Assembly (NCBI GenBank): GCA_965203805.1
Contig: OZ241917.1
Location: forward strand, 3,328,001-3,392,000
Length of the DNA: 64,000 bases
Reading direction: 5' to 3'
Source: Candidatus Latescibacterota bacterium
GTDB lineage: Bacteria; Latescibacterota; UBA2968; GCA-2709665
Shown here: positions 7,640 through 62,790 of the stretch, piece after piece
Layout: every line of letters begins with the position of its first letter
Numbering within the stretch: position 1 is the stretch's first letter
Translations under genes and position numbers: made by a program
The notes under the pieces: model-generated
Database searches by the model: none
What the model was told of the DNA's origin: nothing
What the model saw: the letters and a program-made list of their open reading frames with translations, nothing else

Positions 7640-9990
7640 GTAGCGAACCACCCCCAGCCCCGCAGACCTCTCCCCCCAACCCCCTCTCCCGGGGGGAGAG
7701 GGGGAGGAAAGACAGGCATCGCGTGCCGGTCATCTATAGATACTCTGATAGACGGGAATTCGCCAGCCGGCACACTTGCATGCCCAGGACATCGACCCAT
7801 CACCGTTCCCCCTTCCTCACAGGAAGGGGGATAGGGGGTAGGTCTGAGGAGGGGGGAAAAGCAGCAGTCAGCAAGCAGCGATCAGCGGTCAGCGGTCAGC
7901 GGTCAGCCTAAAGCAAGATCAAAAACAAGAGTCAAAGTCAGTTCACACGGAGACACAAAGGCACGAAGAAAAACAAAGCGGCCAGGACGAACCACCCCCC
8001 AGCCCCGCAGACCTCTCCCCCCGGCCTGCCTGCGCCGAGTTCTGCTCGGCAGGCAGGCCCCCTCTCCCGGGGGGAGAGGGGGAGACAACCAGGACTCCCT
8101 GATAGGATCACCGTTCCCCCCTTCCCCCCGGGAAGGGGGATAGGGGGTAGGTTGGTGGGGAGGAGAGGGGGGACCGGCGGTACCCGCTATCGCTTTTCGA
8201 TATGTGCTCTGATTGATTCAAGCACGCCGTCGAGATTCGTGTGGACTTGGTCATTTGTAATACGCAATACATCTAATCCTCGCGCGTTTAGGATCTCATC
8301 CCGTTTTGCGTCATACGCAGCCTGATCCTGGTGAATCTCGCCGTCGACTTCAATTACCAGGCCGACGGAATGACAATAGAAATCGACAACGAAGCCGTCG
8401 ATGATCTGCTGCCGACGAAAGTGAAGGCCATCGAGCCGATTCGCACGCAAGTGTTGCCATAGCTGTTTTTCTTCTTCTGTCATTTGTGAGCGCAGCGACT
8501 GTGCCAACTTGACCTTCTCATTGTCAACACGTTGACCCCTTACGATATATCGCCTGGATCTATTCATCAACCCCTCCGCCCAACGCAGACCTCTCCCCCC
8601 GGCCCACAACCAGCAGTCAGCCAGAAACAGAAGCAAAATCAAAAACAAGAGTCAAAGTCAGCTCACACAAAGGCACAAAGACACGAAGAAAAACAAACCA
8701 GCCAGGAGCGAACCACCCCCAGCCCCGCAGACCTCTCCCCCCGGCCTGCCTGCGCCGAGTTCTGCTCGGCAGGCAGGCCCCCTCTCCCGGGGGGAGAGGG
8801 GGAGACAACCAGGACTCCCTGATAGGATCACCGTTCCCCCCTTCCCCCCGGGAAGGGGGATAGGGGGTAGGTCTGAGGAGGGGGGAAAAGCAGCAGTCAG
8901 CAAGCAGCTTTCAGCAGTCAGCAATCAACCTAAAGCAAAATCAAAAACAAGATTCAAAGTCAGCTCACACAAAGACATTAAGAAAAACAAAGCAGCCAGG
9001 TGCGAACCACCCCCCAGCCCCGCAGACCTCTCCCCCCGGCCTGCCTGCGCCGAGTTCTGCTCGGCAGGCAGGCCCCCTCTCCCGGGGGGAGAGGGGGAGA
9101 CAACCAGGCATCGCGTGCCGGTCATCTATAGATACTCTGATAGACAGGAATTCGCCACCCGGCACACTTGCATGCCCGGTCCATCGACCCATCGCCGTTC
9201 CCCCTTCCTCACAGGAAGGGGGATAGGGGGTAGGTCTGAGGAGGGGGTGTGGGGGTGAAAACCAGGCATCACGTGCCGGTCATCTATAGATACTCTGATA
9301 GACAGGAATTCGCCAGCCGGCACACTTGCATGCCCACGACATCGACCCATCGCCGTTCCCCCTTCCTCACAGGAAGGGGGTTAGGGGGTAGGTCGGCGGG
9401 GGGAGACGCAAGACGTGAGACGGGAGATGATCACTCGCGTCAACGGGGCGACGATAAGGCCTGGCGACATGACCTCGCGGATGCGCAGACCTCTCCCCCC
9501 TGCCTGCCGAAAAACCACCGCCAGGCAGGGACCCTCTCCTGTGAGGAGAGGGTAACGAACGCCACGCGATAGGATCCGGGGGTCCCCCTTCCGTCGGGAA
9601 GGGGGTAGGCAGTAGGTTGGCGGTGGTGTGGGAGATTGCAAGCGTTGCATCGCGCAAGAAGTTCATCGCAGGTAACTTCGCGAGGTTCTATCGAACGCAC
9701 GGAGGATGGGGTGGGGCTTTTCCGCGCGAGTCCGTCCAGCAACGTCGTCCGGGAATGCCTGCGAGGGTTTCAGGGCAACGTCTCCCGGTGTGTCTCCACG
9801 GAAGCGGTTCGCGGAAAAGCAGCCCCGCGGCGTTTGAGCGGCCTGCCTGCGCCGAAGCCTGCTCGGCAGGCAGGCACGCTTCTTTTTGGTCCTTTTTCTT
9901 ACGTGGATAAGAAAAAGGACGAAGAAGAAAAAAGTAAATTAGAGATGTGAAGTTTGGGACCGCCCGGAACGCAGTTCCAACGGGTGTTTC
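7640..9990 (+). repeat. Modular REP-like cassette 1 (contains DUF559 gene 1)
   Basis: Core GTGCCGGTCATCTATAGATACTCTGA at 7723, 9115, 9273; hairpins CCCCTCTCCCGGGGGGAGAGGGG and CCCCTTCCTCACAGGAAGGGG; CAGCAGT heptamers; ~230-bp direct repeats at 7921 and 8641. Confidence 0.93.
8187..8567 (-). CDS. DUF559 / Vsr-like endonuclease, copy 1 (126 aa)
   Basis: LAQSLRSQMTEEEKQLWQHLR...FRRQQIIDGFVVDFYC...LVIEVDGEIH...YDAKRDEIL...GLDVLRITN. Visibly more AT-rich than host genes. Confidence 0.93.
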   Translation of the reverse strand: MNRSRRYIVRGQRVDNEKVKLAQSLRSQMTEEEKQLWQHLRANRLDGLHFRRQQIIDGFVVDFYCHSVGLVIEVDGEIHQDQAAYDAKRDEILNARGLDVLRITNDQVHTNLDGVLESIRAHIEKR

Positions 9991-10010
9991 CCGCCGGCGG
10001 GCGCACGACC

Positions 10011-13000
10011 CTAGCCGCCGGGCGGCGGGAACGCCGTTAGGCCGAAGGAGGCGGCGAAGGTGAGATAATCGGCGAAGTCTACGGCGCCGTCGTCGTTGAC
10101 GTCGGCCTGGGGGTTGTAGGCCGGGTCGCCCTTTTGGGTCCCGAAGGCGGCGGCGAAGGCGATGAGGTCTTCCAGGTTGACCTGGAGATCGCCGCCCTGC
10201 GACGGGAGGACGATGAGGTAGACCGGATCGCCGGCGGCGTCCGCGAACGTCACGCGGACGGAGATGTTCTCAACCGCGAACGGGGCGCCCGGCGTCACGT
10301 TGTTGTCGTCAACCGCGTCGATCCGGTAGACCAGGGAGGCGACGGCGGCGGGCAGGGCGTCGTCAGCGAAACGGGTGGCGCCCGGAGGCAGCGCGGCGAT
10401 TTCCTCGAGGCGGTCGGCGGATGCGCCTCGCATCACCCGGTAGCCCGTCACGCCATAGATGGGCAGGTTATGGCCGCGGTACGGGATGAACCCCACCACG
10501 CCGTCATCCGCGGACGCCGTCCAACGCAGCGTCACGCCGCCCGCGCCGTCGCCGGACGCGCCGGTCACCGCGGCGGGCGGGATGTTGTCGACCGCGCCGG
10601 CCGGTCCGTCGGTTTCCGTGCGCGCGGACACCCGGAGTTCGCCCGCCGCGCGGTCGGTGCGGACGTTCGCGGGAACGGGCGCGGCGGCCATTGGCGCGCT
10701 CAAGCGCGGATCCGCGGGCGCGAAGACCAGGTCCCGCCGATCGCCGATGACGGACGCGGCGAAATCCCCAGGCGCGTTGAAGCGGTCCGCCGGCTCTCCT
10801 CCCGTCAGGACCGGCGCGGGAATGCCCGGCAGCGCGAGGGCCTGAGCCGCGCTCGCCTTGGTGAAAACCCGCTTCCCGGCGGGGGCCGAATCCGCGCCCG
10901 AGACGGACCTGACGCCCCACCGGGTGGCCGCGTTGTCCAGCGCGGGGACCACGGCGCGGACCAGACCGCCGTTTGCGCCGCCCGTCCCGACGCGGCCGCC
11001 CCCAACGCCGACGGTCGCCCAGTGCATCCACGCCTTCACGGGCGCTTCGCGGTGAATTTCCCGGCCGTGCTCGTCATACCCCGCCAGCGTCGTCTCGACT
11101 TCGCGCTCGATCCGGTAGTGGATCACGGCATCGCGCCGGGCGGCATGCGGGAACCCGATCAGCACCATGCCGCCCTGGTCGCCGGACCCGTCCGCGCCTT
11201 CGTAGTCCTCGACCGTGATGGAGGCGGGCGGGTCCGGGGCGCGGTTCCCAGGCGCGAAACGCACGGTCACGCTTCCCGTAAGCGCGCCGGTCGCGGCGCT
11301 GTCGCCCGACCCCGTGACAAGCCCCTCGTGAACCGTGCGCACGGTGATCACCGCGCTGCCCGCCATCTCCGCGGCCACGGCGCCGAAGCCGGCCCCGCCG
11401 GGCGGGACCGTCTGCACGCCCGCGGGTACCGTCACCGCGGCGTGGCTGCTACCGAAGGTGACGCCCACCGACGCGTAGGTCTCCGATCCCACGGCATTGT
11501 CGATTTTCATGCTCACGTTGCCGAATGCGTCGGCGGGAAGCACGCGGACCGTAAAGGCGCCGGACACGCCGCCGTCCGGATCCGCGGCGTCCCCCGCGGA
11601 CACCACGAATTGCGAGAACTCTGCGGCCTCAACGTTCACCGCCGCGTCCAGCCGGCCGCTGATGCGAATCGAAACCGTCCCGTCCACGGGGTCGGTCAGG
11701 CCCTCCGCGGCCATCACCACGGCGTCGACCAGCGGCCTGGCGGACCTGAAGCTGACGTCGCGCCGGCCCGCGCGCCACCCGTCGCCGTCCAGAACGGCGG
11801 CGCGGGCGACCATCCCGGCGGCGGCCATCTCCGCGGGCAGCGCGAAGGACGGCGCGGGCGTCACACCGATGCCGCCGAAGCTCACGCCTTCCAGCGCGCG
11901 GGCCTGGTCGCCGGAAACGATCACGGCCAGCGCCGCGGGCGTACGATAGGTCAACGCGAAGACGCCGGCGCCCTCGGCGCGTGAGAGCGTGGTGTCCAGG
12001 ACCGACAGGCGCAGGGTGAAATCCACGCCCGCAACCACGCTGCCGCCCTGGTCCGGCGCGTTGACGATGCGGAACGCGTCGGCCTTCGGATTCAGGAAAC
12101 CCCCGGCGAACGTGAGCGCCCCGCCGCCGGTCACGCTGGCGTTGCCGGCGAGATCCACCGCCAGAATCTGCAGATCGTACCGGCTTCCTTCGTAAAAACC
12201 CGCGCTTTCCACGGGCCAGATCATCGGTTTGCCGACGGTCTCCAGCCGGCGGTTGCCCCGTCGGAAACGCTGCACGACGGCCGGGCCGCCGACGGCGAGG
12301 TCGATATAGCGGACGGACAGCGAATCCAGCGCCTCGTCGATGGCGAAGACCGGGTCCTTGCCGGCCAGGTTGATGGTGGGCTCGTCGAAGTTGTCCGGAT
12401 CCCGGGGCGCGGTGGCCGCGGTGGGGAACAGATCGGAGATCACCGGCGCTTTTTCGTCGTACCAGATGCCGGCGAGGTCCATGGCGGCCCGGTTCCCCAC
12501 GCTGTCCCAGACCTCGATCGTCAGGTCTTTCCGCACGCCGCCCGCGCGATCGTATTTCCAGGGAAGCGCAAGCGCGGCCGTGGAATCGTCGCCCGTGGGC
12601 GGCAGACCTTCGTCGACGTCAACCGTGCCGGCGTCATCGACTGCGCCGCTGCCGACGCCGTGCGCGCTGTCGCCGTGGGTGATCCTGATCGAGTCCGGGA
12701 CTTCGCTGAGACTGAACGTGAGCGGGTTCAACCTGCGGTTGGCCTGAACGTCCTCCGCCTCTCCGGGCAGGGGTCGAACTCCCGACAGCGTCTGCGTGAC
12801 GGCCGCCGAGATCCGGTTTTCCATGCGGTCCGGTCGCGGGTACACGATCGTGATCCGGGGCGGTGTCGCGTCGGCGATCCATTCCACGCCGCCGGGATCG
12901 AATGCGTCCGGAAGGCCGTACCCGGCACTGACGGGCGACGGCGCGGGGGCGCCCATCGAGGCGCCGCCCAGGTTGCCGGCGGCATCCACGAGAAACGCTT

Positions 13001-13901
13001 CGACCCTGACCCGCCGGTTATCGCCGAAATCGCCCGCTTCGACCTTCGCCGACGCCCGCACGTTCGCGTTGTACAACCGCTCTCCGACAATCGCGAAGGT
13101 GACCGGCGCCGAGGAAAACGCCGAGTCCGCGTCCACGACCCCCGCCCGGATGCGGTCCGCCCCCGCACGCAGCACGCCGGCCGTGTTCAGACCGATCCGG
13201 ATGGTGATTCTGTCGCCGCGTTTGAACCTGACGCGCTCGATCGCCCCCGCCGGCGTGGCGTCGAATCCGAGGCCTTCCGTTTCAACGGCGAAGGATTCGA
13301 ACGCGTCGGCGTGCACGGGACGGTTGGCGTCGATGCCGAACCGCACCCCGTCGCCCACCCGGTTGGCGCCGAAGCCCGTGGACGCCGGGGTGATCTTCGT
13401 CTTCGTCATCAGGTTGTTCAGCTCGTTGCCGGCCACGTCCGCGTCGAGGTCCACCACCACTTTCACCGCGCGGCTGTCCGTCGACGCAAAGGGGTCGGCG
13501 CGCGGGGAGACGGTTATGGAGACCCGGAACGTGTCGACGCCCGATGCCTCGCCGTCGCCAAACGCGACACCGTCCGGTAGATGACCCGGACCGGGTACAT
13601 ATATATTGTAATAGACAAATCCACGCGTGGCGGCGGTCCCGCCGGCCGTAGCGCCCACGTCCCTGTCGCGCACGGTTGCATCGACGACCGACACGCGGAA
13701 CCCTCGATCCAGGAGGCCGCCGTACGTCAGGATGCGGATGTCGATCCCGCCGTCGATCTTCACCCAGGCATTGGCGGCCGGCCGGTCCACGCGAATCATG
13801 ATCCCCGGCGTCTCCGCGACGTCCTGCGCCCGCGACGCCCCCGCGACACCCGGAACCAGCAAGAACGCCAGAACCGGGACTGAAGATATCCGCAACCGCA
13901 T
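10011..13901 (-). CDS. Secreted paralog (1296 aa) of the 1662-aa surface protein, ending at the dockerin/EF-hand-like pair
   Basis: Collinear shared motifs (SGVDTF, LNNLM..KITPA..GFGA.RVGDGV.FG, ILAVDLAGNASVT, DYEGADGSGDQGG, YNPQADVNDDGAVDFADY); signal peptide; GGGAGG SD. Confidence 0.88.
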   Translation of the reverse strand: MRLRISSVPVLAFLLVPGVAGASRAQDVAETPGIMIRVDRPAANAWVKIDGGIDIRILTYGGLLDRGFRVSVVDATVRDRDVGATAGGTAATRGFVYYNIYVPGPGHLPDGVAFGDGEASGVDTFRVSITVSPRADPFASTDSRAVKVVVDLDADVAGNELNNLMTKTKITPASTGFGANRVGDGVRFGIDANRPVHADAFESFAVETEGLGFDATPAGAIERVRFKRGDRITIRIGLNTAGVLRAGADRIRAGVVDADSAFSSAPVTFAIVGERLYNANVRASAKVEAGDFGDNRRVRVEAFLVDAAGNLGGASMGAPAPSPVSAGYGLPDAFDPGGVEWIADATPPRITIVYPRPDRMENRISAAVTQTLSGVRPLPGEAEDVQANRRLNPLTFSLSEVPDSIRITHGDSAHGVGSGAVDDAGTVDVDEGLPPTGDDSTAALALPWKYDRAGGVRKDLTIEVWDSVGNRAAMDLAGIWYDEKAPVISDLFPTAATAPRDPDNFDEPTINLAGKDPVFAIDEALDSLSVRYIDLAVGGPAVVQRFRRGNRRLETVGKPMIWPVESAGFYEGSRYDLQILAVDLAGNASVTGGGALTFAGGFLNPKADAFRIVNAPDQGGSVVAGVDFTLRLSVLDTTLSRAEGAGVFALTYRTPAALAVIVSGDQARALEGVSFGGIGVTPAPSFALPAEMAAAGMVARAAVLDGDGWRAGRRDVSFRSARPLVDAVVMAAEGLTDPVDGTVSIRISGRLDAAVNVEAAEFSQFVVSAGDAADPDGGVSGAFTVRVLPADAFGNVSMKIDNAVGSETYASVGVTFGSSHAAVTVPAGVQTVPPGGAGFGAVAAEMAGSAVITVRTVHEGLVTGSGDSAATGALTGSVTVRFAPGNRAPDPPASITVEDYEGADGSGDQGGMVLIGFPHAARRDAVIHYRIEREVETTLAGYDEHGREIHREAPVKAWMHWATVGVGGGRVGTGGANGGLVRAVVPALDNAATRWGVRSVSGADSAPAGKRVFTKASAAQALALPGIPAPVLTGGEPADRFNAPGDFAASVIGDRRDLVFAPADPRLSAPMAAAPVPANVRTDRAAGELRVSARTETDGPAGAVDNIPPAAVTGASGDGAGGVTLRWTASADDGVVGFIPYRGHNLPIYGVTGYRVMRGASADRLEEIAALPPGATRFADDALPAAVASLVYRIDAVDDNNVTPGAPFAVENISVRVTFADAAGDPVYLIVLPSQGGDLQVNLEDLIAFAAAFGTQKGDPAYNPQADVNDDGAVDFADYLTFAASFGLTAFPPPGG

Positions 13902-14477: not shown

Positions 14478-15580
14478 AGACAGGCGTCGCGTGCCGGTCA
14501 TCTATAGATACTCTGATAGACAGGAATTCGCCAGCCGGCACGTTTGCATGCCCGGTCCATCGACCCATCGCCGTTCCCCCTTCCTCACAGGAAGGGGGGC
14601 CAGGGGGTAGGTCGGCGGGGAGGAGAGAGGGAGTAAAGACAGGCGTCGCGTGCCGGTCATCTATAGATACTCTGATAGACAGGAATTCGCCAGCCGGCAC
14701 ACTTGCATGCCCGGTCCATCGACCCATCGCCGTTCCCCCTTCCTCACAGGAAGGGGGCTAGGGGGTAGGTCGGCGGGGAGGAGAGGGGGAGAAAAGACAG
14801 GCGTCGCGTGCCGGTCATCTATAGATACTCTGATAGACAGGAATTCGCCAGCCGGCACACTTGCATGCCCGGTCCATCGACCCATCACCGTTCCCCCTTC
14901 CTCACAGGAAGGGGGATAGGGGGTAGGTCGGCGGAGGCGGTGAGGGGGAGTAAAGACAGGCGTCGCGGGCCGGTCATCTATAGATACTCTGATAGACAGG
15001 AATTCGCCACCCGGCACGTCTGCATGCCCAGGACATCGACCCATCGCCGTTCCCCCTTCCTCACAGGAAGGGGGATAGGGGGTAGGTCGGCGGAGGCGGT
15101 GAGGGGGAGTAAAGACAGGCTTCGCGGGCCGGTCATCTATAGATACTCTGATAGACAGGAATTCGCCACCCGGCACGTTTGCATGCCCGGTCCATCGACC
15201 CGTCACCGTTCCCCCTTCCTCGCAGGAAGGGGGCCAGGGGGTAGGTCGGCGGAGGCGGTGAGGGGGAGTAAAGACAGGCGTCGCGGGCCGGTCATCTATA
15301 GATACTCTGATAGACAGGAATTCGCCACCCGGCACGTCTGCATGCCCAGGACATCGACCCATCGCCGTTCCCCCTTCCTCACAGGAAGGGGGATAGGGGG
15401 TAGGTCGGCGGGGGGGAGAGGGGGAGTAAAGACAGGCTTCGCGGGCCGGTCATCTATAGATACTCTGATAGACAGGAATTCGCCACCCGGCACGTTTGCA
15501 TGCCCGGTCCATCGACCCGTCACCGTTCCCCCTTCCTCGCAGGAAGGGGGCCAGGGGGTAGGTCGGCGGGGAGGAGAGGG
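14478..15580 (+). repeat. Tandem array of 7 units of 158-159 bp
   Basis: Core starts at 14491, 14650, 14808, 14967, 15126, 15285, 15443; an eighth copy at 16091 lies beyond the DUF559 gene. Confidence 0.95.
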
Positions 15581-15587
15581 GAGAAAT

Positions 15588-15980
15588 CTATACGTTGCAT
15601 TGAAGCCATTCCATATAAGCTCTGATTGTTTCGAGTACGCCATCGAGATTCGTGCAGATCTCGGCATTTGAGATGCGTATGACCTGTAATCCACGCGCTT
15701 TGAGAATGGCATCCCGTTCTGCGTCATAAGCTACCTGATTCTGGTGAACTTCGCCATCGACTTCAATCACTAATCCGACCGAATGACAGTAGAAGTCCAC
15801 GATAAAGCCATCGATAATCTGTTGCCGTCTAAAGCGAAAGCCATCAAGCCGTTTCGCACGCAGGCGCTGCCAAAGCCGTTTTTCTTCGTCTGTCATCTGT
15901 GATCTCAATTTGCGCGCCAACTTCACTTTCTCGCGCGCGACAGGCTGACCGATCACAATTTTTCGCAAGGGCTTTTTCAT
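15588..15980 (-). CDS. DUF559 / Vsr-like endonuclease, copy 2 (130 aa)
   Basis: LARKLRSQMTDEEKRLWQRLR...FRRQQIIDGFIVDFYC...IEVDGEVH...YDAERDAIL. About 90/126 residues identical to copy 1 by hand alignment. Confidence 0.93.
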   Translation of the reverse strand: MKKPLRKIVIGQPVAREKVKLARKLRSQMTDEEKRLWQRLRAKRLDGFRFRRQQIIDGFIVDFYCHSVGLVIEVDGEVHQNQVAYDAERDAILKARGLQVIRISNAEICTNLDGVLETIRAYMEWLQCNV

Positions 15981-16308
15981 CAGAAACCTCTCCCTCCTGC
16001 CGCGCAGACCTCTCCCCCCGGCCTGCCGAAAAACCACCGCCAGGCAGGGACCCTCTCCTGTGAGGAGAGGGGAGAAAAGACTGGCGTCGCGTGCCGGTCA
16101 TCTATAGATACTCTGATAGACAGGAATTCGCCAGCCGGCACGTTTGCATGCCCAGGACATCGACCCATCGCCGTTCCCCCTTCCTCACAGGAAGGGGGCC
16201 AGGGGGTAGGTCGGCGGGGTGGTGTGGCGGTTTGGTCACTGCAAAAATCGCGCCGCTCACCAGCAGCGTCGGACGCAAGGACGATGCGTGGGGGCCTCTA
16301 CCCGCAAC

Positions 16309-16914: not shown

Positions 16915-17660
16915 CAGCTTTCAGCGGTCAGCTCTCAGCAGTCAGCTAAGATCAAAGACGAAAACCAGCTCACACAAAGACACGAAGACACAAAGAAAAG
17001 CAAACCAGCCAGGAACGAACCACCCCCAGCCCCGCAGACCTCTCCCCCCGGCCACCTCTCCTGTGAGGAGAGGGGGAGGAAAAGCAGGCATCGCGTGCCG
17101 GTCATCTATAGACATTCTGATAGACAGGAATTCGCCAGCCGGCACGTCTGCATGCCCGGTCCATCGACCCGTCACCGTTCCCCCTTCCTCACAGGAAGGG
17201 GGCTAGGGGGTAGGTCTGAAAAGCGGTGAGACGGGAGACGTGAGACGTGAGATGACAACCTGCGTCAACGGGACGACGATATGGCCGGGCGAGACCTCCT
17301 CCCTGATGCGCAGACCTCTCCCCCCTGCCTGCCGAAAAACCACCGCCAGGCAGGGACCCTCTCCTATAAGGAAAGGGTAACGAACGCCTCGCGATAGGAT
17401 CCCGCTATCCCCCTTCCTCACAGGAAGGGGGATAGGGGGTAGGTCTGAAAGGCGGGGAGACGGGAGACGTGAGATACCGTGAGTGCCCTACGGTTTTTCT
17501 TGTCGTTACCATATCGGTAAAGAAACAGGCACGGTTAGCGTGAAAACACTGTGGTAATGTCATCCTCTCCCGTCTACCCTCTACCCTCTACCGTCTCACC
17601 GCCTTCAGGTTTTCATTCTTAATTCTTCATTCTTAATTCTTAATTTTCCTTCTCCCGTCT
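16915..17660 (+). repeat. Modular REP-like cassette 3 between rpsR and rplI
   Basis: Heptamer and 9-mer modules, REP pair, core at 17095, TTCATTCTTAA tail. Confidence 0.92.
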
Positions 17661-18282: not shown

Positions 18283-18347
18283 GGAACCTCCCCCTGGACT
18301 GGTGGCCCGCGAACCGCCCGACCGGGCGGTCACGAGCGGGAAAGAAA

Positions 18348-18970
18348 GACAGCAATCAGCTCTCAGCAATCAGCAGTCAGCTAAGATCAAAGACGAAAAC
18401 CAGCTCACACGAAGACACGAAGACACAAAGAAAAGCAAACCAGAAACCAGCAGTCAGCAAAGAGCGAACCACACCCAGCCCCGCAGACCTCTCCCCCCGG
18501 CTCCCTCTCCCGGGGGGAGAGGGGGAGGAAAGACAGGCATCGCGTGCCGGTCATCTATAGATACTCTGATTGACAGGAAATCGCCAGCCGGCACGGTTGT
18601 ATGCCCAGTACATGCTCCCATCGCCGTTCCCCCTTCCTCACAGGAAGGGGGGTTAGGGGGTAGGTCGGTAGGGGTATGGGGGTTCGCAAGCGCTTAGTCG
18701 TTATGACGGAAAATGCTTTGAATATCGTATAGTCCAGTCATGCGTACGGTTGTGGAGTGGGGGGTTTTTCCGTGCTACTCCGTCCAGCAACATCGCTTTG
18801 GATGTGCTGGCTCGGTGACAGGGCAACCAATTTCCATTTCCGCCACTGAGGTGGTTCACGGAAAAACCGGCCCCGCGCCGAGCGGCCTGCCTGCGCCGAA
18901 GCCTGCTCGGCAGGCAGGCGCCGTTCTTTTTGGCCCTTTTTCTTGGGCGTACAAGAAAAAGGGCGTAAAA
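18348..18970 (+). repeat. Modular REP-like cassette 4
   Basis: Core at 18544, TTTTTCCGTG...CACGGAAAAA module, CCTGCCTG hairpin. Confidence 0.9.
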
Positions 18971-19068
18971 ATATAAAAAATAATAATTTAAATTGAAATT
19001 ACGGGCAATTCAAAGGCGAAATCCATCATCCCCCTTGACCCATATGTCTTTCGTTTCCCCTGGCAATG

Positions 19069-21081: not shown

Positions 21082-21099
21082 AGGCAAACCTCCCGAAAA

Positions 21100-22165
21100 G
21101 CAGCGTTCAGCAGTCAGCGATCAGCAGTCAGCCAAGATCGAAGACGAAAACCAGCTCACACAAAGACACGAAGACACAAAGAAAACCAAACCAGCAGTCA
21201 GCGGAAAGCGAACCACCCCCAGCCCCGCAGACCTCTCCCCCCTGCCTGCCGAAAAACCACCGCCAGGCAGGGACCCTCTCCTATAAGGAAAGGGTAACGA
21301 ACGCCACGCGATAGGATCCCGCTTAACCCCTTTCTTATAGGAAGGGGGTAGGTCTCGAAAAGGGTAGACGTGAGATGAATGCCCTATGGTCTTTCTCGTC
21401 GTTACCATAGTCGGTAAAGAAACAGGCACGGTTAGCGTGAAAACACTGTGGTAACGTTTTCATCTACCGTCTACCCTCTACCGTCTCACCGCCTTCAGGT
21501 TTTCATTCTTAATTCTTCATTCTTCATTTTTTACAGTTCCCTGCCTACGGCGTGTTCCTTTTGAAGCGACCAAAAGGAACCAAAAGTCGCCACTGGGCGT
21601 GGGGCCTGCTACAGGCACAGCGCGAACACGCTTACTGGATGCACAGGATCCGCTGCCCTGACGCCTTCGGAGGAACATCGATCCGCGTTGCCGGACGGAT
21701 CAGCGCGCTCTGCTCTGGTCGTCCTCCGGTCTGGAAATGCCTTTGTAGACCTATCGGCGTATGAATGATGAGGACAGCTGTTAACCATCAGCCCACAGTT
21801 GACCGCTTGAAGCAAAGAGCGAACCACCCCCAGCCCCGCAGACCTCTCCCCCCTGCCTGCCGAAAAACCACCGCCAGGCAGGGACCCTCTCCTATAAGGA
21901 AAGGGTAACGAACGCCACGCGATAGGATCCCGCTTAACCCCTTTCTTATAGGAAGGGGGTAGGTCTCGAAAAGGGTAGACGTGAGATGAATGCCCTATGG
22001 TGTTTCTTGTCGTTACCATATCGGTAAAGAAACAGGCACGGTTAGCGTGAAAACACTGTGGTAACGTTTTCATCTACCGTCTACCCTCTACCGTCTCACC
22101 GCCTTCAGGTTTTCATTCTTAATTCTTCATTCTTAATTCTTCATTTTTCCTTCTCCCGTCTACCC
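21100..22165 (+). repeat. Modular REP-like cassette 5 with a ~320-bp internal duplication (period ~610 bp)
   Basis: About 21207-21530 matches about 21817-22140 almost exactly. Confidence 0.92.
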
Positions 22166-22169
22166 GCTT

Positions 22170-22727
22170 TTATGAATTATACCGATTCATCGCCTCGTCG
22201 ATGCCGGATTCCATCCAGCATGCCGCCCCGCGGGCGGCCGCGCGGACCGCCGCCTCGACGGTGTCGCGCTCATCGTCTTCGAACGGGTTCAGGACGTGCT
22301 CGATCCGGTCCGCGCCTTCCGGCGGCGCGCCGATGCCGACTCGCAGCCGCGGAAACGCGCCGGACCCCACGCAATCGATGACCGACGCCAGCCCGTTATG
22401 CCCGCCGTGGCTGCCGCCGCGCCGCAGCCGGATCCGGCCCAGGTCCAGGTGGACGTCGTCCACGACCACCAGGGCATCCTCGATGCCAACCTCGAAACCG
22501 TCCAGGACCTGCGCCACCGCAACGCCGCTGCGATTTATGTACGTGGCCGGCTTCACCAGCAGCAGCGGCCGGTCGCCCTTCCCAATCCGGCAAAAAAAAT
22601 ACCAGGCGCTTTCCGACCACGTCCCCTTAAACCTTGACGCCAGCAGGTCCACCACCCGATAGCCCAGGTTGTGGCGGGTATGAGCGTATTCGGAACCCGG
22701 GTTGCCCAGACCCACGACAACCTTCAC
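22170..22727 (-). CDS. pth: Peptidyl-tRNA hydrolase
   Basis: VVGLGNPGSEYAHTRHNLG, KPATYINRSG, GSHGGHNGLAS, RLRVGIG; GTG start. Confidence 0.97.
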   Translation of the reverse strand: MKVVVGLGNPGSEYAHTRHNLGYRVVDLLASRFKGTWSESAWYFFCRIGKGDRPLLLVKPATYINRSGVAVAQVLDGFEVGIEDALVVVDDVHLDLGRIRLRRGGSHGGHNGLASVIDCVGSGAFPRLRVGIGAPPEGADRIEHVLNPFEDDERDTVEAAVRAAARGAACWMESGIDEAMNRYNS

Positions 22728-22743
22728 GAGAACCCCCAAAAGG

Positions 22744-23395
22744 CAGCTATCAGCAGTCAGCAGTCAGCAAAGATCAAAGACGAAAACCAACTCACACAAA
22801 GACACGAAGACGCAAAGAAAAGCAAACCAGCAATCAGCTCTCAGCAGTCAGCCAAGATCAAAGACGAAAATCGGCTCAAACAAAGACACGAAGACGCAAA
22901 GAAAAAAGACAGCAATCAGCCGAGAGCGAACCACCCCCAGCCCCGCAGACCTCTCCCCCCTGCCTGCCGAAAAACCACCGCCAGGCAGGGACCCTCTCCT
23001 GTGAGGAGAGGGGAGGAAAAGCAGGCATCGCGTGCCGGTCATCTATAGATACACTGATAGACAGGAAATCGCCAGCCCGGCACATTTGCATGCCCGGTCC
23101 ATCGACCCATCGCCGTTCCCCCTTCCTCACAGGAAGGGGGTTAGGGGGTAGGTCGGTAGGGGTGTGGGGGTTCACGGAAAAAAACAAATTAGAGATGTGA
23201 AGTTTGGGACCGCCCGGAACGCAGTTCCAACGGGTGTCTGTCCGCCGCCAGGCGACCTGTAAGGATGCTATGGGCAAAATACAGGAGGACCATCCCGTTT
23301 TCATTCTTAATTCTTCATTTTTCCTTCTTCCTTCCTCCCTCTCCCCTCTCACCGCATTCAGGTTTTCATTCTTAATTCTTAATTCTTAATTTTTC
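22744..23395 (+). repeat. Modular REP-like cassette 6 between rplY and pth
   Basis: Core at 23032; same module order. Confidence 0.92.
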
Positions 23396-23396
23396 C

Positions 23397-24083
23397 TTAC
23401 TCTTCATCGTCCTCGTCTTCATCCTTCTTGCCGCGTTCGATGACCTCGGGTTCCTGCATCTCTTCCTCTTCCTCGAGCACCTCTTCCTCTTCCTCCTCCA
23501 CCTGCGCGATTGACGGCGGAACCACCACGAACACGGACCGGTCGCTTTCGGTAACGATCTCCACGTTGCCGGACACGCTCAGATCGGAGACGTGCACCGA
23601 ATCCCCGATATTCAGATGGTTCACGTCGAACCCGATGCTTTCCGGGATCTCGGCGGGCAGGGACGACACCTCCACCTGGTGCAGCAGCTGCTCCAGAATG
23701 CCGCCCTCGGTGCGCACGCCGGCCGGAATGCCTTCGGCCTCGACCCGGACGTCCACGACGATTTTCTGGGTGAGCGAGATCCTGTAGAAGTCCGCGTGGA
23801 GGAGATGACCGCCAACGGGGTGGTGCTGCAGCTCCTTGACGATGGCGGTGTCTTCGGATTGCTCCTCGCCGTTGCCCACAACCAGGGACAGAAGCGTATT
23901 CCGACCGTGCTCGTGCAGGACCGTTGACAACGCCTTCGAATCGACCGAACAGGCGACGGGCGCGCCCCGGTCGCCATAGACGACGGCCGGTATCCTCCCG
24001 GTACGCCGGATGCGTTTGGCCTCGCCCTTTCCGGTTCCGGAGCGTACATCGGCCTGTAAGGTTACGCCATTATTGTCAGCCAT
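23397..24083 (-). CDS. rplY: 50S ribosomal protein L25 / Ctc
   Basis: GKGEAKRIRRTGRIPAVVYG, KELQHHPV..LLHADF, GVRTEGGIL, LNIGDSVHVSDL, EPEVIERGKK. Confidence 0.96.
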   Translation of the reverse strand: MADNNGVTLQADVRSGTGKGEAKRIRRTGRIPAVVYGDRGAPVACSVDSKALSTVLHEHGRNTLLSLVVGNGEEQSEDTAIVKELQHHPVGGHLLHADFYRISLTQKIVVDVRVEAEGIPAGVRTEGGILEQLLHQVEVSSLPAEIPESIGFDVNHLNIGDSVHVSDLSVSGNVEIVTESDRSVFVVVPPSIAQVEEEEEEVLEEEEEMQEPEVIERGKKDEDEDDEE

Positions 24084-25224: not shown

Positions 25225-26180
25225 CTTCAGCTTTCAGCAATCAGCAATCAGCAGTCAGCTTCAGTCAAGAGCGAGAATCAAAAACAAAAATCAAATTCAA
25301 CATCCACATCTCCCCAAATTCCCTGCCGTCGAAAAGCAGCTTTCAGCAGTCAGCCAGGAGCGAACCACCCCCAACCCCGCAGACCTCTCCCCCCTGCCTG
25401 CCGAAAAACCACCGCCAGGCAGGGACCCTCTCCTGTGAGGAGAGGGTAACGAACGCCTCGCGATAGGATCCCGCTTTCCCCCTTCCTTATATAGGAAGGG
25501 GGTAGGTGTCGAAAAGGGGAGACGTGAGATGAATGCCCTATGGTCTTTCTTGTCGTTACCATATCGGTAAAGAAACAGGCACAGTTAGCGTGAAAACACT
25601 GTGGTAACGTTTTCATCTACCGTCTACCGTCTTACGTCTCACCGAATTTACGCGTGCCGGTCATCTATAGATACTTCTGATTGACAGGTAATCGCCAGCC
25701 GGCACGGTTGTATGCCCAGTACATCCTCCCATCGCCGTTCCCCCTTCCTCACAGGAAGGGGGTTAGGGGGTAGGTTGCCGGTGAGGAAAGGGGAGCAAAA
25801 TGCAGCAGTCAGCCAGGAGCGAACCACCCCCAACCCCGCAGACCTCTCCCCCCTGCCTGCCGAAAAACCACCGCCAGGCAGGGACCCTCTCCTGTGAGGA
25901 AAGGGTAACGAACGCCTCGCGATAGGATCCCGCTTTCCCCCTTCCTCACAGGAAGGGGGTTAGGGGGTAGGTCTGAAAGGCGGGGAGACGGGAGATATTG
26001 TGTGCCCTGTACGGTTTCATCTCTTGCCGCAGGCATAAAGTAAGATCGAATCAGGCAAGGACTTCATCTAACGTCTCCCCTCTCCCGTCTCACCGCCTTC
26101 ATCTAACGTCTACCCTCTTACGTCTCACCGCTTTCAGGTTTTCATTCTTAATTCTTCATTCTTCATTCTTAATTCTTCCG
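25225..26180 (+). repeat. Modular REP-like cassette 7
   Basis: Two REP pairs, core at 25654, heptamer ends. Confidence 0.92.
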
Positions 26181-31789: not shown

Positions 31790-32934
31790 AAGAGCGGGGA
31801 GACGTAAGACGTGAGACGTGAGATTATATCAGTGCTCCATGGTCTTTCCAGTCGTTACGATAACGGTAAATTAGCAGGCACGGTTTATGTAGAAACACGG
31901 CTGTGAATGTCTTCATCTACCGTCTACCCTCTTACGTCTACCCGCTTTTACGCGTGCCGGTCATCTATAGATACTCTGATTGACAGGAATTCGCCAGCCC
32001 GGCACATCTGCATGCCCGGTCCATCGACCCATCGCCGTTCCCCCTTCCTCGCAGGAAGGGGGATAGGGGGTAGGTTGGCGGAGGCGGGGAGACGGGAGAG
32101 GTGAGACGGGAGATGGGGGATGACAACCTGCGTCAACGGGACGACGATATGGCCGGGCGAGACCTCCTCCCTGATGCGCAGACCTATCCCCCCTGCCTGC
32201 CGAAAAACCACCGCCAGGCAGGGACCCTTTCCTATAAGGAAAGGGTAACGAACGCCACGCGATAGGATCCGGGGGTCCCCCTTCCGTCGGGAAGGGGGTA
32301 GGTCTCGAAAAGGGTAGACGTAAGATGGGGGATGACAACCTGCGTCAACGGGGCGACGATAAGGCCGGGCGAGACCTCCTCCCTGATGCGCAGACCTCTC
32401 CCCCCTGCCTGCCGAAAAACCACCGCCAGGCAGGGACCCTCTCCTATAAGGAAAGGGTAACGAACGCCACGCGATAGGATCCGGGGGTCCCCCTTCCGTC
32501 GGGAAGGGGGCTAGGGAATGGGTCTCGAAAAGGGTAGACGTGAGATGGGGGATGACAACCTGCGTCAACGGGGCGACGATAAGGCCGGGCGACATGACCT
32601 CCCTGATGCGCAGACCTCTCCCCCCTGCCTGCCGAAAAACCACCGCCAGGCAGGGACCCTCTCCTATAAGGAAAGGGTAACGAACGCCACGCGATAGGAT
32701 CCGGGGGTCCCCCTTCCGTCGGGAAGGGGGCTAGGGAATGGGTCTCGAAAAGGGTAGACGTGAGATGAATGCCCTATGGTCTTTCTCGTCGTTACCATAG
32801 TCGGTAAAGAAACAGGCACGGTTAGCGTGAAAACACTGTGGTAACGTTTTCATCTACCGTCTACCCTCTTACGTCTCACCGCCTTCATCTACCGTCTACC
32901 CTCTTACCGCTTTCAGGTTTTCATTCTTAATTCT
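31790..32934 (+). repeat. Modular REP-like cassette 8, with 3 tandem units of ~212-220 bp; tail continues at 34758-34800 after the IS
   Basis: Core at 31954; GATGACAACC at 32119, 32331, 32551. Confidence 0.93.
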
Positions 32935-36387: not shown

Positions 36388-36424
36388 AGAAGCCCGGCGG
36401 GTATTCCCGCCGGGCTTCTTTGTA
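36388..36424 (+). terminator. Intrinsic terminator after degQ
   Basis: Perfect 14-bp stem AGAAGCCCGGCGGG-TATT-CCCGCCGGGCTTCT followed by TTGT. Confidence 0.8.
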
Positions 36425-38160
36425 AGCTTTCAGCAGTCAGCTAAAAGCAAAAGCGCCCTCACCCCCAACCCCGCAGACCTCTCCCCCCGGCCCCCTCTCC
36501 CGGGGGGAGAGGGGGAGAAAAGACAGGCATCGCGGGCCGGTCATCTATAGATACTCTGATTGACAGGAAATCGCCAGCCGGCACATTTGCATGCCCGGTC
36601 CATCGACCCATCGCCGTTCCCCCTTCCTCACAGGAAGGGGGATAGGGGGTAGGTCCCGAAAAGGGTAGACGGGAGACGGGAGATGAGGGATGACAACCTG
36701 CTTCAACGGGGCGACGATAAGGCCTGGCGACATGACCTCGCGGATGCGCAGACCTATCCCCCTGCCTGCCGAAAAATCACCGCCAGGCAGGGACCCTTTC
36801 CTATAAGGAAAGGGGGGAGACAACCAGGAGAACGCCTCTACAGACGTCGGCGCGCCAACACCGCGAATCCTCACCATTGTCCTTCACGACATACCTATCA
36901 CGCGTCCGGTGGTGGGGATGGGGTTTTTCCGTGCAAGTCCGTCCGGGAACGCCTGCAACGGTTTCAGGGCAACGTCTCCCGTTGTCTCCACTGAAGCGGT
37001 TCACGGAAAAAATAAAAATTGATGGGAGAGGTTAAGTTTCTGTCCTACCGGAACGCAGGTCCAACGGGTGTCTGTCCGCCGCCAGGCGCCCTTTGGGGAT
37101 GCTATGGATAATCCCCACGAGGACCATCCCGTTTTCATTCTTCATTCTTCATTCTTCATTCCGCCTTCATCTACCGTCTACCCTCTTACGTCTAACCGCT
37201 TTTACGCAGACCTCTCCCCCCGGCCCCCTCTCCCGGGGGGAGAGGGGGAGAGAAGCAGGCATCGCGGGCCGGTCATCTATAGACACTCTGATTGACAGGA
37301 AATCGCCACCCGGCACATCTGCATGCCCGGTCCATCGACCCGTCGCCGTTCCCCCTTCCTCGCAGGAAGGGGGTTAGGGGGTAGGTCCCGAAAAGGGTAG
37401 ACGGGAGATGAGGGATGACAACCTGCTTCAACGGGGCGACGATAAGGCCTGGCGACATGACCTCGCGGATGCGCAGACCTATCCCCCTGCCTGCCGAAAA
37501 ACCACCGCCAGGCAGGGACCCTTTCCTATAAGGAAAGGGGGGAGACAACCAGGAGAACGCCTCTACAGACGTCGGCGCGCCAACACCGCGAATCCTCACC
37601 ATTGTCCTTCACGACATACCTATCACGCGTCCGGTGGTGGGGATGGGGTTTTTCCGTGCAAGTCCGTCCGGGAACGCCTGCAACGGTTTCAGGGCAACGT
37701 CTCCCGTTGTCTCCACTGAAGCGGTTCACGGAAAAAATAAAAATTGATGGGAGAGGTTAAGTTTCTGTCCCCCAGGAGATTAGTTCCAACGGGTGTCTGT
37801 CCGCCGCCAGGCGCCCTTTGGGGATGCTATGGATAATTCCCACGAGGACCATCCCGTTTTCATTCTTCATTCTTCCTTTTTCCTTCTTCCTTCCTCCCTC
37901 TTACGTCTCACCGCTTTCAGGTTTTCATTCTTAATTCTTCATTCTTCATTTTTCATTCCGCCTTCCTCCTCCTTCCCTCTCCCGTCTCCCCTATTTTCTT
38001 GCCCCGTGTTGTTTCATATCTTGCCAGAGGCATAAGGGAAGTACCAATCGGGCAAGGACATCATCTACCGTCTACCCTCTTACGTCTCACCGGTTTTAGG
38101 TTTTCATTCTTAATTCTTCATTCTTAATTCTTAATTATTCTTTCTTCCCGTCTCACCGGT
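36425..38160 (+). repeat. Modular REP-like cassette 9: ~680-bp block duplicated (period ~730 bp)
   Basis: About 36472-37150 matches about 37205-37875; cores at 36534 and 37266. Confidence 0.93.
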
Positions 38161-38161
38161 T

Positions 38162-39916
38162 TTACGGCGCCTTTTTGTTGATCTTGATAACGTAGGTTTC
38201 CGGAGGTTTCGCAATGTGCACGACCGAGAAACGCTCCGGGTAGGCCTTGATGGCCGGCATGATACGTGTCAATTTCTCTTTGAACGCGGGGATGTTCTCC
38301 AGCAGGACGTAGTCGAATTTGTCAAGCGCCTTCATCGCTTCGGCCGGATCCTCGGACCGGGGGTAGCCATCGGTTTCCCGCTTCGACCAGAACCACACCA
38401 GGCCCGGCTTCCGGGTGGAGACACGGCTTTCAGGGGGCGTGTTGTCCCGCATCCAGACGCTGGCCTCGTAATATGGTTTCCAGACCGTGTGATAACCGGA
38501 CATCGTCCGCTGTCCCCTGACAATTGCGAAACCCCCGTACAACGAAGGCAGCAGAAACAGACAGGCCAGGAACACGGGCGCATACCTGATCAGAACAGGG
38601 CGCGCAAGAACAGGCGTGAACCTGCTCAACCGCAGAAAGCGGGCGCGGCGTCCGGCCGGATCTGTCGATTCAGGAAACAGGCCGCAGATCCTCTCCGCGG
38701 CATTGAATACGTAGAGCACGATGAACGGCAGTACCGGCAGCAGGTAACGGGCGGGCGAGCCGGGCAGGGCGAACAGGGTGGCAACGTATCCCATGAAGTA
38801 CCAGTCGTGCACCTCCAGGCTTCGCAGAAGCGAGAGGGGCTTTCGGGCGGGGGACTTTCTCCCGAACACAAACCCGATGCCGATCAGAATGAAAAAGAGC
38901 CAACCCATGGGACGCCACGCCGCGGTAATCGGCAGTTTGTCCAGAAATTGCCTGAAAAGCAGGAGGTATTCCAGGTTCTCCAGGTATCCGCGGGGGTTTT
39001 TGGTGAAGAAATAATAAAAGAAATTATCCCAGAAGGAACCCACTTCGCCCTCCGGGATGTAAACCCCCGCCGAGATCTGGTGGATCATCCCCAGGTACCC
39101 CTGGGTTTCGGGAAAGTTCACCTTCAGATAGAGTACCCACGGCAGAACCCAGACCGAGACGCACGCGGCAAGAAGCGCCGGTTTCCTGAATTGTCCGCGC
39201 AGAACGAGATAGATCGCAGCCGCAATCACCAGGTAGACCGACGGCGACTTGACGTGGTACGCCCACCCCGCGGCGCAGGACGCCGCGATCAGCCATTTCC
39301 ACGAGATACCCGGATGCTTGATGTACTTCAGGATCGCCCAGAGGGCGAGCATTGAGAATGCGGGAAAGGGTACGTCCGCGGTGGCGACGTTGGAATATTC
39401 CATAGACAGCCAGGAGGAACCGGTAATCAGGGCGATCAGAAGCGCCCGGCTGTTGTCGATGAATTCCCGGGCGACCAGGAACGTGAAGAGCGGAAAGAGA
39501 AACCCTGTCAGGGCGATGGTCGCCTTGAGCGCGAGTACGCTATCCGGAAACAGGACGACCGCCGGCATCAGCAGCGTCTTCACGCCCAGGCCGTACTGGC
39601 TGTCCACCACGCCTCTGCCCTGGACCAGGCGCATCGCGTCCCTGATATACACGATATTGTCGCCGATGACGTGCACCCACTCGTTGCAGGTGAGAAGATA
39701 CAGCCCGGTAATCGCGGCGGTACCGATCACGGCCGAGGCCGTAAACCTGTGCTCCGGAATCTGCCGGAATGCCGCCAGACCGGCAACGCAGAGAATCACG
39801 ACCATACAGGCCATCGTGGGCGCCAGGGTCGCAAGGTTGAGAAGGTGCGCACACTGATAGGCCAGCAGGACAACCAGGGAATACGGGAAGACGTAGCTGA
39901 GGTATCGGGCGGTCAT
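38162..39916 (-). CDS. Multi-pass membrane protein, GT-C (ArnT/PMT-like) glycosyltransferase candidate
   Basis: Many TM segments; GDNIVYI loop, ADVPF, RYLLPVLPF, EASVWMRDNTPPES. Start moved to ATG 39916, overlapping the GT2 stop. Confidence 0.7.
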   Translation of the reverse strand: MTARYLSYVFPYSLVVLLAYQCAHLLNLATLAPTMACMVVILCVAGLAAFRQIPEHRFTASAVIGTAAITGLYLLTCNEWVHVIGDNIVYIRDAMRLVQGRGVVDSQYGLGVKTLLMPAVVLFPDSVLALKATIALTGFLFPLFTFLVAREFIDNSRALLIALITGSSWLSMEYSNVATADVPFPAFSMLALWAILKYIKHPGISWKWLIAASCAAGWAYHVKSPSVYLVIAAAIYLVLRGQFRKPALLAACVSVWVLPWVLYLKVNFPETQGYLGMIHQISAGVYIPEGEVGSFWDNFFYYFFTKNPRGYLENLEYLLLFRQFLDKLPITAAWRPMGWLFFILIGIGFVFGRKSPARKPLSLLRSLEVHDWYFMGYVATLFALPGSPARYLLPVLPFIVLYVFNAAERICGLFPESTDPAGRRARFLRLSRFTPVLARPVLIRYAPVFLACLFLLPSLYGGFAIVRGQRTMSGYHTVWKPYYEASVWMRDNTPPESRVSTRKPGLVWFWSKRETDGYPRSEDPAEAMKALDKFDYVLLENIPAFKEKLTRIMPAIKAYPERFSVVHIAKPPETYVIKINKKAP

Positions 39917-61172: not shown

Positions 61173-61174
61173 AC

Positions 61175-62790
61175 GGGAGCGAGAACGAAAATCAACTCAC
61201 ACGGAGACACAAAGACACAAAGAAAACCGAACCAGAAACCAGCAGTCAGCGGTCAGCGGTCGGCAGTCAGCCAAGAGCGAACCACCCCCAGCCCCGCAGA
61301 CCTCTCCCCCCTGCCCCCTCTCCCGGGGGGAGAGGGGGAGAAAAAGGCAGCCGTCAGCTTGAAGCGAAAGGCGAAAACCAGCTCACACAAAGACACGAAG
61401 ACACAAAGAAAACCTAACCAGAAACCAGCAGTCAGCATTCGGCTGTCAGCTTGAAGCAAGAGCGCCCTCACCCCCAACTCCGCAGACCTCTCCCCCCTGC
61501 CTGCCGAAAAACCACCGCCAGGCAGGGACCCTCTCCTATAAGGAAAGGGTAACGAACGCCACGCGATAGGATCCTGCTTTCCTTCTTCCTTATAGGAAGG
61601 GGGTAGGGGGAAGGTCTGAAAGGCGGGGAGAGGGGAGACGTAAGACGGGAGATACCGTGAGTGCTCTATGGTCTTTCCAGTCGTTACGATAACGGTAAAT
61701 AAACAGGCACGGTTTATGTAGAATCACTGCTGTGAATGTCTTCATCTACCGTCTACCCTCTTACGTCTACCCGCTTTTACGCAGACCTCTCCCCCCAACC
61801 CCCTCTCCCGGGGGGAGAGGGGGTGAAAAGACAGGCATCGCGTGCCGGTCATCTATAGATACTCTGATGGACAGGAAATCGCCACCCGGCACACTTGCAT
61901 GCCCGGTCCATCGACCCATCGCCGTTCCCCCTTCCTCACAGGAAGGGGGTTAGGGGGAAGGTCTGAAAGGCGGGGAGACGTAAGACGGGAGATACCGTGA
62001 GTGCCTGAAAGGCGGGGAGACGTAAGACGGGAGATATTGTGTGCCCTGTACGGTTTCATCTCTTGCCGCAGGCATAAAGTAAGATCCAATCAGGCAAGGA
62101 CCTCATCTAACGTCTAACCTCTACCCTCTCACCGCTTTTACGCGACCTCTCCCCCCAACCCCCTCTCCCGGGGGGAGAGGGGGAGACAAGACAGGCATCG
62201 CGTGCCGGTCATCTATAGATACTCTGATAGACAGGAATTCGCCAGCCGGCACACTTGCATGCCCGGTCCATCGACCCATCGCCGTTCCCCCTTCCTCACA
62301 GGAAGGGGGTTAGGGGGAAGGTTGGTGGTGAGGAGAGGGGGAGAAAAGACAGGCATCGCGTGCCGGTCATCTATAGATACTCTGATAGACAGGAATTCGC
62401 CAGCCGGCACATTTGCATGCCCGGTCCATCGACCCATCGCCGTTCCCCCTTCCTCACAGGAAGGGGGATAGGGGGTAGGTCTGAAAGGCGGGGAGACGTG
62501 AGATGATATCAGTGCTCTATGGTCTTTCCAGTCGTTACGATAACGGTAAATATACAGGCACGGTTAGCGCGAAAACACTGAGGTAACGCTATCATCTACC
62601 GTCTAACCGCTTTCAGGTTTTCATTTTTCCTTTTTCCTTCTTCATTTTTCCTTTTTCTTCCTCCCGTCTACCCTCTTACGTCTCACCGCTTTTATTGCCC
62701 CGTGAAGTTTCATATCTTGCCAGAGGCATTAAGCGAGAACCAATCGGGCAAGGACGTCATCTACCGTCTACCGGCTCACGTCTCACCGCT
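61175..62790 (+). repeat. Modular REP-like cassette 10
   Basis: Cores at 61842, 62202, 62360; the modules seen in other cassettes recur here. Confidence 0.93.

Follow-up and report, generated by a model that had tools for sequence, protein, structure and literature searches.

Uniform polarity of intergenic mosaic repeats in a Candidatus Latescibacterota chromosome and its probable relation to replication direction

Introduction

Repetitive extragenic palindromic (REP) sequences and bacterial interspersed mosaic elements (BIMEs), which accompany the REP-associated tyrosine transposase RAYT (TnpA-REP) in enterobacteria and pseudomonads, are intergenic, form hairpins, combine short motif types into mosaics and often lie in tandem (PMC3333891, PMC6006769). 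In these respects they resemble a family of mosaic repeats, with a conserved core of about 92 nt, that fills most intergenic DNA in a 64,000-nucleotide stretch of a Candidatus Latescibacterota bacterium (assembly GCA_965203805.1, contig OZ241917.1, positions 3,328,001 to 3,392,000 of the forward strand), referred to below as the window. For REP and BIME sequences a single-strand mechanism linked to the replication fork has been proposed (PMC3333891, PMC6006769), and for the tandem amplification of BIMEs a single-strand, rolling-circle-like model (PMC3333891). Unlike BIMEs, the window units are far larger (0.5-1.7 kb, with the 92-nt core), include heptamer arrays in their grammar, and are not accompanied by a RAYT gene among the open reading frames (ORFs) of the window. 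The tnpA-REP gene is flanked by the repeats and usually present in a single copy per genome. A REP is a short imperfect palindrome preceded, 5' of its foot, by a conserved guide tetranucleotide; the mosaics do contain hairpins, but no guide or cleavage motif could be defined in them.

Insertion sequences of the IS200/IS605 family show a strong orientation bias relative to replication, carry hairpins that are recognised, and have no terminal inverted repeats (PMC5027513). An orientation bias, hairpins and the lack of terminal inverted repeats are common to the mosaics and to these elements with their small non-autonomous derivatives, whereas no domain of TnpA (Y1) or TnpB, one or both of which full-length copies encode, was found in the ORFs of the window. 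Sets of TAACTGA heptamers are described from Beggiatoaceae, cyanobacteria and Bacteroidetes; most sets in Beggiatoaceae face a downstream start codon, and in Microcystis eight sets between stop codons share one chromosomal orientation (PMC4679880). As with such heptamer direct repeats, tandem heptamers fill intergenic DNA in the window. Unlike the gene-tied sets of Beggiatoaceae, however, the mosaics are oriented without regard to genes, and their heptamers form only the edges of a larger hairpin mosaic. The STRR repeats of cyanobacteria are another intergenic heptamer direct repeat. Chromosomal integron attC arrays, for which orientation relative to replication has been discussed (PMC5371416), likewise consist of co-oriented structured repeats between genes, but the window has no integron integrase, carries housekeeping genes between the copies and has its repeats spread over 55 kb. 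A literature search returned no paper containing the three mosaic sequence strings used as queries and, judged by titles and the beginnings of abstracts, none on such intergenic repeats in Latescibacter.

Polarity and copy number of the core

The conserved core measures about 92 nt and folds as a long hairpin; its reference copy is at 17085-17176. A first-pass annotation of the window had listed 21 copies, all on the plus strand, at 7723, 9115, 9273, 14491-15443 (seven copies), 16091, 17095, 18544, 23032, 25654, 31954, 36534, 37266, 61842, 62202 and 62360. Pattern matching across the whole window found every one of them to be real, on the plus strand and at these positions, the matches starting 2 nt further right because the pattern begins 2 nt later. 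A 29-nt segment taken from the core matched 20 times with at most three mismatches, always on the plus strand, against an expectation of 0.00 in shuffled sequence. The 21st copy, at 25654, is also on the plus strand and escaped this pattern because it carries a one-base insertion. Five sub-motifs of the core gave 20-21 matches on the plus strand and 0-1 on the minus strand. The absence of reversed copies, also asserted previously, was borne out in the window, as there were none on the minus strand and a tolerance of eight mismatches brought up no additional copy on either strand. The copies are not independent, because all 21 share 11 intergenic regions, and the seven in the 14491-15443 block lie head-to-tail with a period of 158-159 nt. 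If each region is counted as one event, simple arithmetic gives a chance of 2^-10, or about 0.001, for the uniform orientation.

Architecture of the mosaics

The polarity extends from the core to the entire mosaic. When the window was compared with itself by BLAST, the direct matches numbered 1026 and summed to 153 kb, whereas there were just 2 inverted matches, covering 164 bp. Sixteen modules were defined by their coordinates in one reference mosaic (16915..17660) and then mapped across the window. All 16 occur on the plus strand only, apart from the GAGACGN heptamer array; its complement is itself a module, and the two arrays are therefore the arms of a long hairpin. A single colinear order is maintained in 12 regions. 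It starts with CAGCNNT heptamers (H1), an A-rich block (M1) and a C-rich block (M2) ending in CGCAGACCTCTCCCCCC. One to three GC hairpins (HPa, HPa2, HPb) follow, then the core and a second long hairpin (HPc). The remainder consists of optional H2-M3-M2'-HPa-M5-HPc units, then H2, M4 or M6, H2rc and TTCTTNA heptamers (H3), where H2 denotes the GAGACGN heptamers placed around further hairpin blocks. The loci in the window, and the two genes embedded at the same module junction, are as follows.

7713..7804, plus strand: first core copy, about 92 nt long, with the HPc hairpin directly after it at 7805-7844
9105..9394, plus strand: two tandem core and HPc units, the cores starting at 9105 and 9263
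7629..10004, plus strand: mosaic DNA flanking the first DUF559 gene on both sides and ending in M7 (9625-9960)
14481..15564, plus strand: seven core and HPc units head-to-tail, period 158-159 nt
16087..16212, plus strand: core and HPc
16915..17660, plus strand: reference mosaic in the rplI / rpsR spacer, H1-M1-M2-HPb-CORE (17085-17176)-HPc-H2-M3-M2'-HPa-M5-HPc-H2-M4-H2rc-H3
18341..18983, plus strand: mosaic in the rpsF / hppA spacer, with core 18534-18595 and module M7
21095..22175, plus strand: mosaic in the hppA / pth spacer, no core, two 610-nt units
22741..23418, plus strand: mosaic in the pth / rplY spacer, core 23022-23108
25227..26179, plus strand: mosaic between the divergent ispE-like and TPR genes, core 25651-25706 with a 1-nt insertion and a different 5' junction
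31794..32934, plus strand: mosaic between plus-strand genes, core 31951-32030, then three H2-M3-M2'-HPa-M5 units (period 212-220 nt)
36422..38166, plus strand: mosaic flanked by convergent genes, its two cores (36524 and 37256) within a 725-732 nt tandem duplication
61177..62789, plus strand: mosaic between plus-strand genes, cores at 61832, 62192 and 62350
8187..8570, minus strand: DUF559 gene (Vsr-like nuclease fold) with HPc of the mosaic on one side and M2' on the other, third-position GC 0.52
15588..15983, minus strand: other DUF559 gene, 73% identical to the first and located at the same junction of modules

Strict patterns for the heptamers gave plus-to-minus counts of 10:0, 10:0, 7:0 and 11:0. 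The first-pass annotation had the cassettes usually opening with CAGCAGT heptamers and closing with TTCATTCTTAA tracts. Both heptamer kinds are indeed strictly on the plus strand (10:0 and 10:0), but their position at the edges holds in only some regions: in the module map, of the 11 regions with a core, about 6 have a CAGCNNT array at the left edge and about 5 have a TTCTTNA array at the right.

Altogether the mosaics amount to about 12.5 kb, a total that leaves out one paralogous gene pair and two unrelated local duplications. This is roughly three quarters of the 16.5 kb of intergenic DNA and about a fifth of the window. Nearly every long intergenic gap is filled by a mosaic, and often no more than 4-30 nt separate the mosaic from the ORFs on either side. 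Tandem amplification of sub-units has produced periods of 158-159, 212-220, 610 and 725-732 nt, and the 725-732 nt duplication includes 300 nt at 99% identity. The core is best explained as a single module within an interspersed mosaic element that is specific to the lineage and abounds in hairpins and heptamers.

Two cores, at 25651 and 31951, are without the usual 5' part (…AAAGACAGGCAT) and are fused directly to the CCGTCTC-heptamer module at a common CGC; module M2' also begins with CGC. The junctions hint at a shuffling of modules at short CGC microhomology. Module M7 is present at 9690-9960 and 18730-18985, with partial copies near 36925-37025 and 37650-37750, and recurs in the related locus L001 described below (9580-9814 and 13609-13869, both on the minus strand). 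It looks like a structured element. Two subtypes differ in the outer stem by two clean compensatory C-G to U-A changes, double changes occur in 9 of 33 predicted pairs among five sequences, and the loops are conserved. The module closes with a GGCCTGCC...GGCAGGC hairpin and a T/A-rich hairpin, and it has no match in Rfam.

Orientation relative to neighbouring genes

Judged by its gene content, the window is ordinary chromosome. As the first-pass annotation had reported, the flanking genes come in every arrangement: eight regions lie between two minus-strand genes (among them 21088-22169, the mosaic without a core), one between divergent genes (25197-26458), two between plus-strand genes (31790-33054 and 61173-62801) and one between convergent genes (36346-38161). 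The orientation of the mosaics is constant beside genes of either strand, including those inside the two blocks of plus-strand genes. Because it is the same in all four arrangements, transcription of the neighbouring genes does not set the direction, in agreement with the earlier claim.

Orientation relative to replication

The relation to replication was examined in two loci, the window and a 20-kb locus termed L001. In the window the plus strand is C-rich, with a GC skew over all positions of -0.021 in plus-strand genes and -0.050 in minus-strand genes; at third positions the values are -0.126 and +0.053, respectively. The component of the skew attributable to replication is -0.035 over all positions (bootstrap 95% interval -0.052 to -0.019) and -0.033 at third positions (interval -0.072 to +0.001). 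The translation genes rplI, rpsF, pth and rplY and the tRNA gene are on the minus strand. Since the plus strand is C-rich whatever the direction of the genes, and the translation genes are on the minus strand, the plus strand is taken to be the lagging strand in the window.

A degenerate core pattern was run across a collection of genome contigs to which the source genome does not belong, and it returned a single related locus. This locus, L001, comes from a metagenome-assembled genome (MAG) labelled Candidatus Latescibacterota, where it is part of the 906-kb contig CAXXXF010000015.1. One strand carries dnaN and dnaA, the other rpmH, yidC, mnmE and rsmG (gidB). The low-GC spacer between dnaN and dnaA (2964-3724) contains one exact and two one-mismatch DnaA-box sites and coincides with the minimum of the cumulative GC skew; across L001 as a whole there are 4 DnaA-box-like sites against 2.0 expected, a weak excess by itself. 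By these sequence features the spacer is likely the oriC of this MAG. To the right of it, averaging over gene direction leaves the plus strand G-rich, with values of +0.02 for all positions and +0.05 for third positions. The strand leading away from the origin is thus G-rich, and the rule of a G-rich leading strand therefore holds in this lineage.

Three mosaics of the same grammar are present in L001, at 9.5-10.3, 13.4-14.4 and 15.7-16.1 kb. They are 6-13 kb from the origin region, all to one side of it, and their flanking genes are both plus, both minus and divergent. All three are reversed relative to the plus-strand sense of the window, and they consequently lie on the lagging strand. With the mosaic sense on the lagging strand in both loci, the arrow from H1 to H3 points against the movement of the fork, towards the origin.

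As the first of two options, the first-pass annotation had proposed that orientation is set by replication direction, pointing to single-stranded DNA of the lagging strand. The skew and translation genes of the window and the arrangement of L001 both place the mosaics on the lagging strand, although these are two loci only, which would agree by luck in one case out of two. We consider some form of link between orientation and replication probable. The appeal to lagging-strand single-stranded DNA needs to be qualified: the core does lie on the lagging strand, but as written it is located on the leading-strand template, and its complement is on the exposed lagging-strand template.

Folding, transcription signals and encoded enzymes

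The core, HPc and M7 fold into long hairpins. Among 22 core sequences covariation was seen in 1 of 38 pairs, almost none, because the copies are too alike. A scan of 16880-26500 for promoter- and terminator-like sites gave 5 against 2.6 and 17 against 11.7 in shuffled sequence, respectively, which is not clearly above the background. No Rfam family reached its gathering score in the mosaics, and the tRNA was the sole match in the whole window. A search of three mosaic stretches against Rfam at E-values up to 5 gave only sub-threshold hairpin noise. A 760-nt mosaic had no match in plasmid and phage collections. An ORF running through the tandem array had one relative among 5.8 billion protein clusters, on a contig of 1292 nt.

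The genes embedded in mosaics in the window are, in full, the two DUF559 copies and one IS1182/IS5-like transposase. A tblastn search for DUF559 found only the two intact genes in the window. The idea that module M3 is a remnant of the 5' end of DUF559 was rejected, as the local alignment scores did not exceed those of shuffles once the common M2' had been removed (p 0.17-0.64 in eight comparisons). The DUF559 genes follow HPc and precede M2', are antisense to the mosaic, and have a third-position GC of 0.52-0.53 compared with about 0.8 in neighbouring genes. Each locus looks like either a mosaic that carries a gene or a mosaic into which one was inserted. The transposase gene (33055-34581, plus strand; DUF772) has a third-position GC of 0.63, is inserted in a mosaic-bearing spacer and scores far below the cut-offs of its families, as a distant member.

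Possible origins of the polarity

The best reading of the mosaics is that of a lineage-specific, BIME-like repeat family, a strictly polar variant of bacterial interspersed mosaic repeats. As the cause of the polarity we tentatively favour, with a confidence that stops short of calling it probable, insertion and amplification of single strands coupled to the fork. Single-stranded intermediates at the fork would give rise to new copies and to tandem expansions, a route that has precedents in the IS200/IS605 elements and in the proposal for REP/BIME with Y1 (HUH) enzymes. Such an origin would fix the orientation of the elements with respect to the moving fork, after which the arrays would grow by slippage and by recombination between direct repeats. 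In IS200/IS605 elements the active strand lies on the lagging-strand template; if the analogy holds, the active strand would be the complement of the core as written. What the sequences show is a uniform polarity that ignores gene direction, a fixed module order and two loci in agreement with the direction of replication; the single-strand mechanism at the fork and the enzyme behind it are inferred.

Several observations weigh against this explanation. The basic unit of a BIME is two inverted REPs, whereas the mosaics give the 1026 direct and 2 inverted matches reported above, with 0 reversed cores. Neither strand of the core folds clearly better than the other, at -60.9 versus -58.8 kcal/mol as RNA and -29.1 versus -28.3 as DNA, and alignment folds of the two strands reach -47.3 and -41.0. 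Among the 36 main and 94 intergenic ORFs of the window there is no Y1/HUH transposase or RAYT. The ends of the elements, their target sites and target duplications could not be defined, and the module junctions have only the short CGC in common, which fits template switching as well as a site-specific enzyme. Behind the link to replication stand a modest skew whose third-position interval touches zero and two loci that had a 50% chance of agreeing by luck. L001 belongs to a metagenome bin, and since all its mosaics are on one side of the origin, no flip was seen.

The polarity could also have come about with no strand bias of insertion at all, through the loss of copies in the opposite sense. 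Recombination between dense, 90-99% identical inverted copies would invert chromosome segments and turn highly expressed genes head-on to replication. In favour of this stands the extreme density of the repeats, with mosaics every few kb and 99% identity in blocks as long as 300 nt. Such purging, the second of the two options in the first-pass annotation, predicts uniform polarity over a 55-kb stretch just as well. It does not predict which strand is used, however, and the window and L001 agree in this; other abundant bacterial repeats and insertion sequences, moreover, occur in both orientations despite the same hazard. We regard purging as possible but unlikely. Somewhat harder to credit is a regional polarity unrelated to replication, in which copies spread and are homogenised between neighbouring spacers by tandem duplication, unequal crossing-over and gene conversion, so that blocks elsewhere could point either way. 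The rampant tandem amplification (158-159, 212-220, 610 and 725-732 nt), the repeated use of short CGC microhomology at junctions and the fact that only two regions have been seen all speak for it. Yet unrelated housekeeping genes of both directions separate the mosaics over 55 kb, and L001, in another genome, has the same relation to the fork.

A more radical possibility, which we consider quite doubtful, is that the mosaics are a new class of replication-oriented element, a self-propagating spacer filler that takes up almost all long gaps between genes, points back to the origin and flips only at origin and terminus. Its movement or copying would proceed through single strands and depend on an enzyme that so far has no link to mobility, for which the embedded Vsr-like nuclease DUF559 is one candidate, or else the cell would read it as a polar landmark. 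We also give little chance to a polar signal for a machine that travels along the chromosome (KOPS-like for FtsK, Chi-like for RecBCD or AddAB, or a guide for SMC), with orientation held by selection. Polarity relative to replication is the hallmark of KOPS- and Chi-type signals, and the most frequent module, M2, is a G-rich run on the leading strand, but the known signals are 5-8-mers that also occur within genes and not intergenic mosaics of 0.5-1.7 kb. That the elements are RNA genes or untranslated regions, with their direction given by transcription, is very improbable. The long hairpins in the core, HPc and M7 and the two clean compensatory pairs in the outer stem of M7 would suit an RNA. 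The same sense is nevertheless kept upstream and downstream of neighbouring genes, co-directional with them and antisense to them, and neither Rfam at its gathering scores nor the promoter and terminator scan, not clearly above shuffles, points to transcripts. For an integron-like cassette array with co-oriented recombination sites the probability is negligible. Co-oriented structured repeats do stand between the genes, and a tyrosine recombinase gene is present in the window; its product is XerD, scoring 361 bits against a cut-off of 329.6, while the integron-integrase model gives 135.6 against a cut-off of 265. The would-be cassettes, furthermore, are rpsF, rplI, pth, rplY, hppA, his genes and genes for proteins of 1200-1800 aa, rather than short, mostly promoterless accessory cassettes.

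If the orientation flips at the origin and terminus, the mosaics would be a rare case of a very abundant intergenic repeat family that is strictly polar to replication. Such a flip would suggest fork-coupled spreading beyond the well-studied IS200/IS605 and REP systems, in a poorly known, uncultivated lineage, and would offer a built-in marker of replication direction for the assembly of such genomes and for origin finding. It may also explain why 0.7-kb insertions are tolerated in operons such as rpsF-rpsR-rplI.

Neighbouring genes and minor observations

The genes from 1 to 25.2 kb are all on the minus strand and comprise a cohesin-domain protein, a BFN/UVR nuclease, the two DUF559 genes, rplI, rpsF, the H+-pyrophosphatase gene, pth, rplY, a tRNA and an ispE-like kinase; rpsR, on the same strand, was read from the sequence by eye and not by a profile scan. 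The plus strand carries a TPR protein, a sigma-54 activator, the IS1182/IS5-like transposase and htrA at 26.5-36.3 kb, followed by xerD, ogt and uvrC among the minus-strand genes at 38.2-45.8 kb, and by histidine and polysaccharide genes on the plus strand at 46.7-63.5 kb.

The gene pairs rpsR/rplI and pth/rplY are usually tightly linked. In the window they are split by mosaics of 0.65-0.76 kb (16901-17664, within rpsF-rpsR-rplI, and 22740-23396), which are either transcribed through or supply promoters of their own. A promoter-like site overlaps the heptamers upstream of rplI. Two minus-strand genes at 2162-4693 and 10069-12513, encoding a cohesin/FlgD-Ig protein of 1776 aa and a protein of 1296 aa, share about 2.4 kb of similar DNA and are paralogues in direct orientation. 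The xerD ORF (41744-43096, minus strand) has about 150 extra N-terminal codons, since the model aligns from residue 163, and overlaps ogt (42670-43212); the excess is probably an over-long ORF call in GC-rich DNA. Between a phosphoesterase gene and hisG, at 45999-46686, lies an unrelated 372-nt tandem duplication whose GGCCTGCCTGCC...GGCAGGC hairpins resemble the HPa module.

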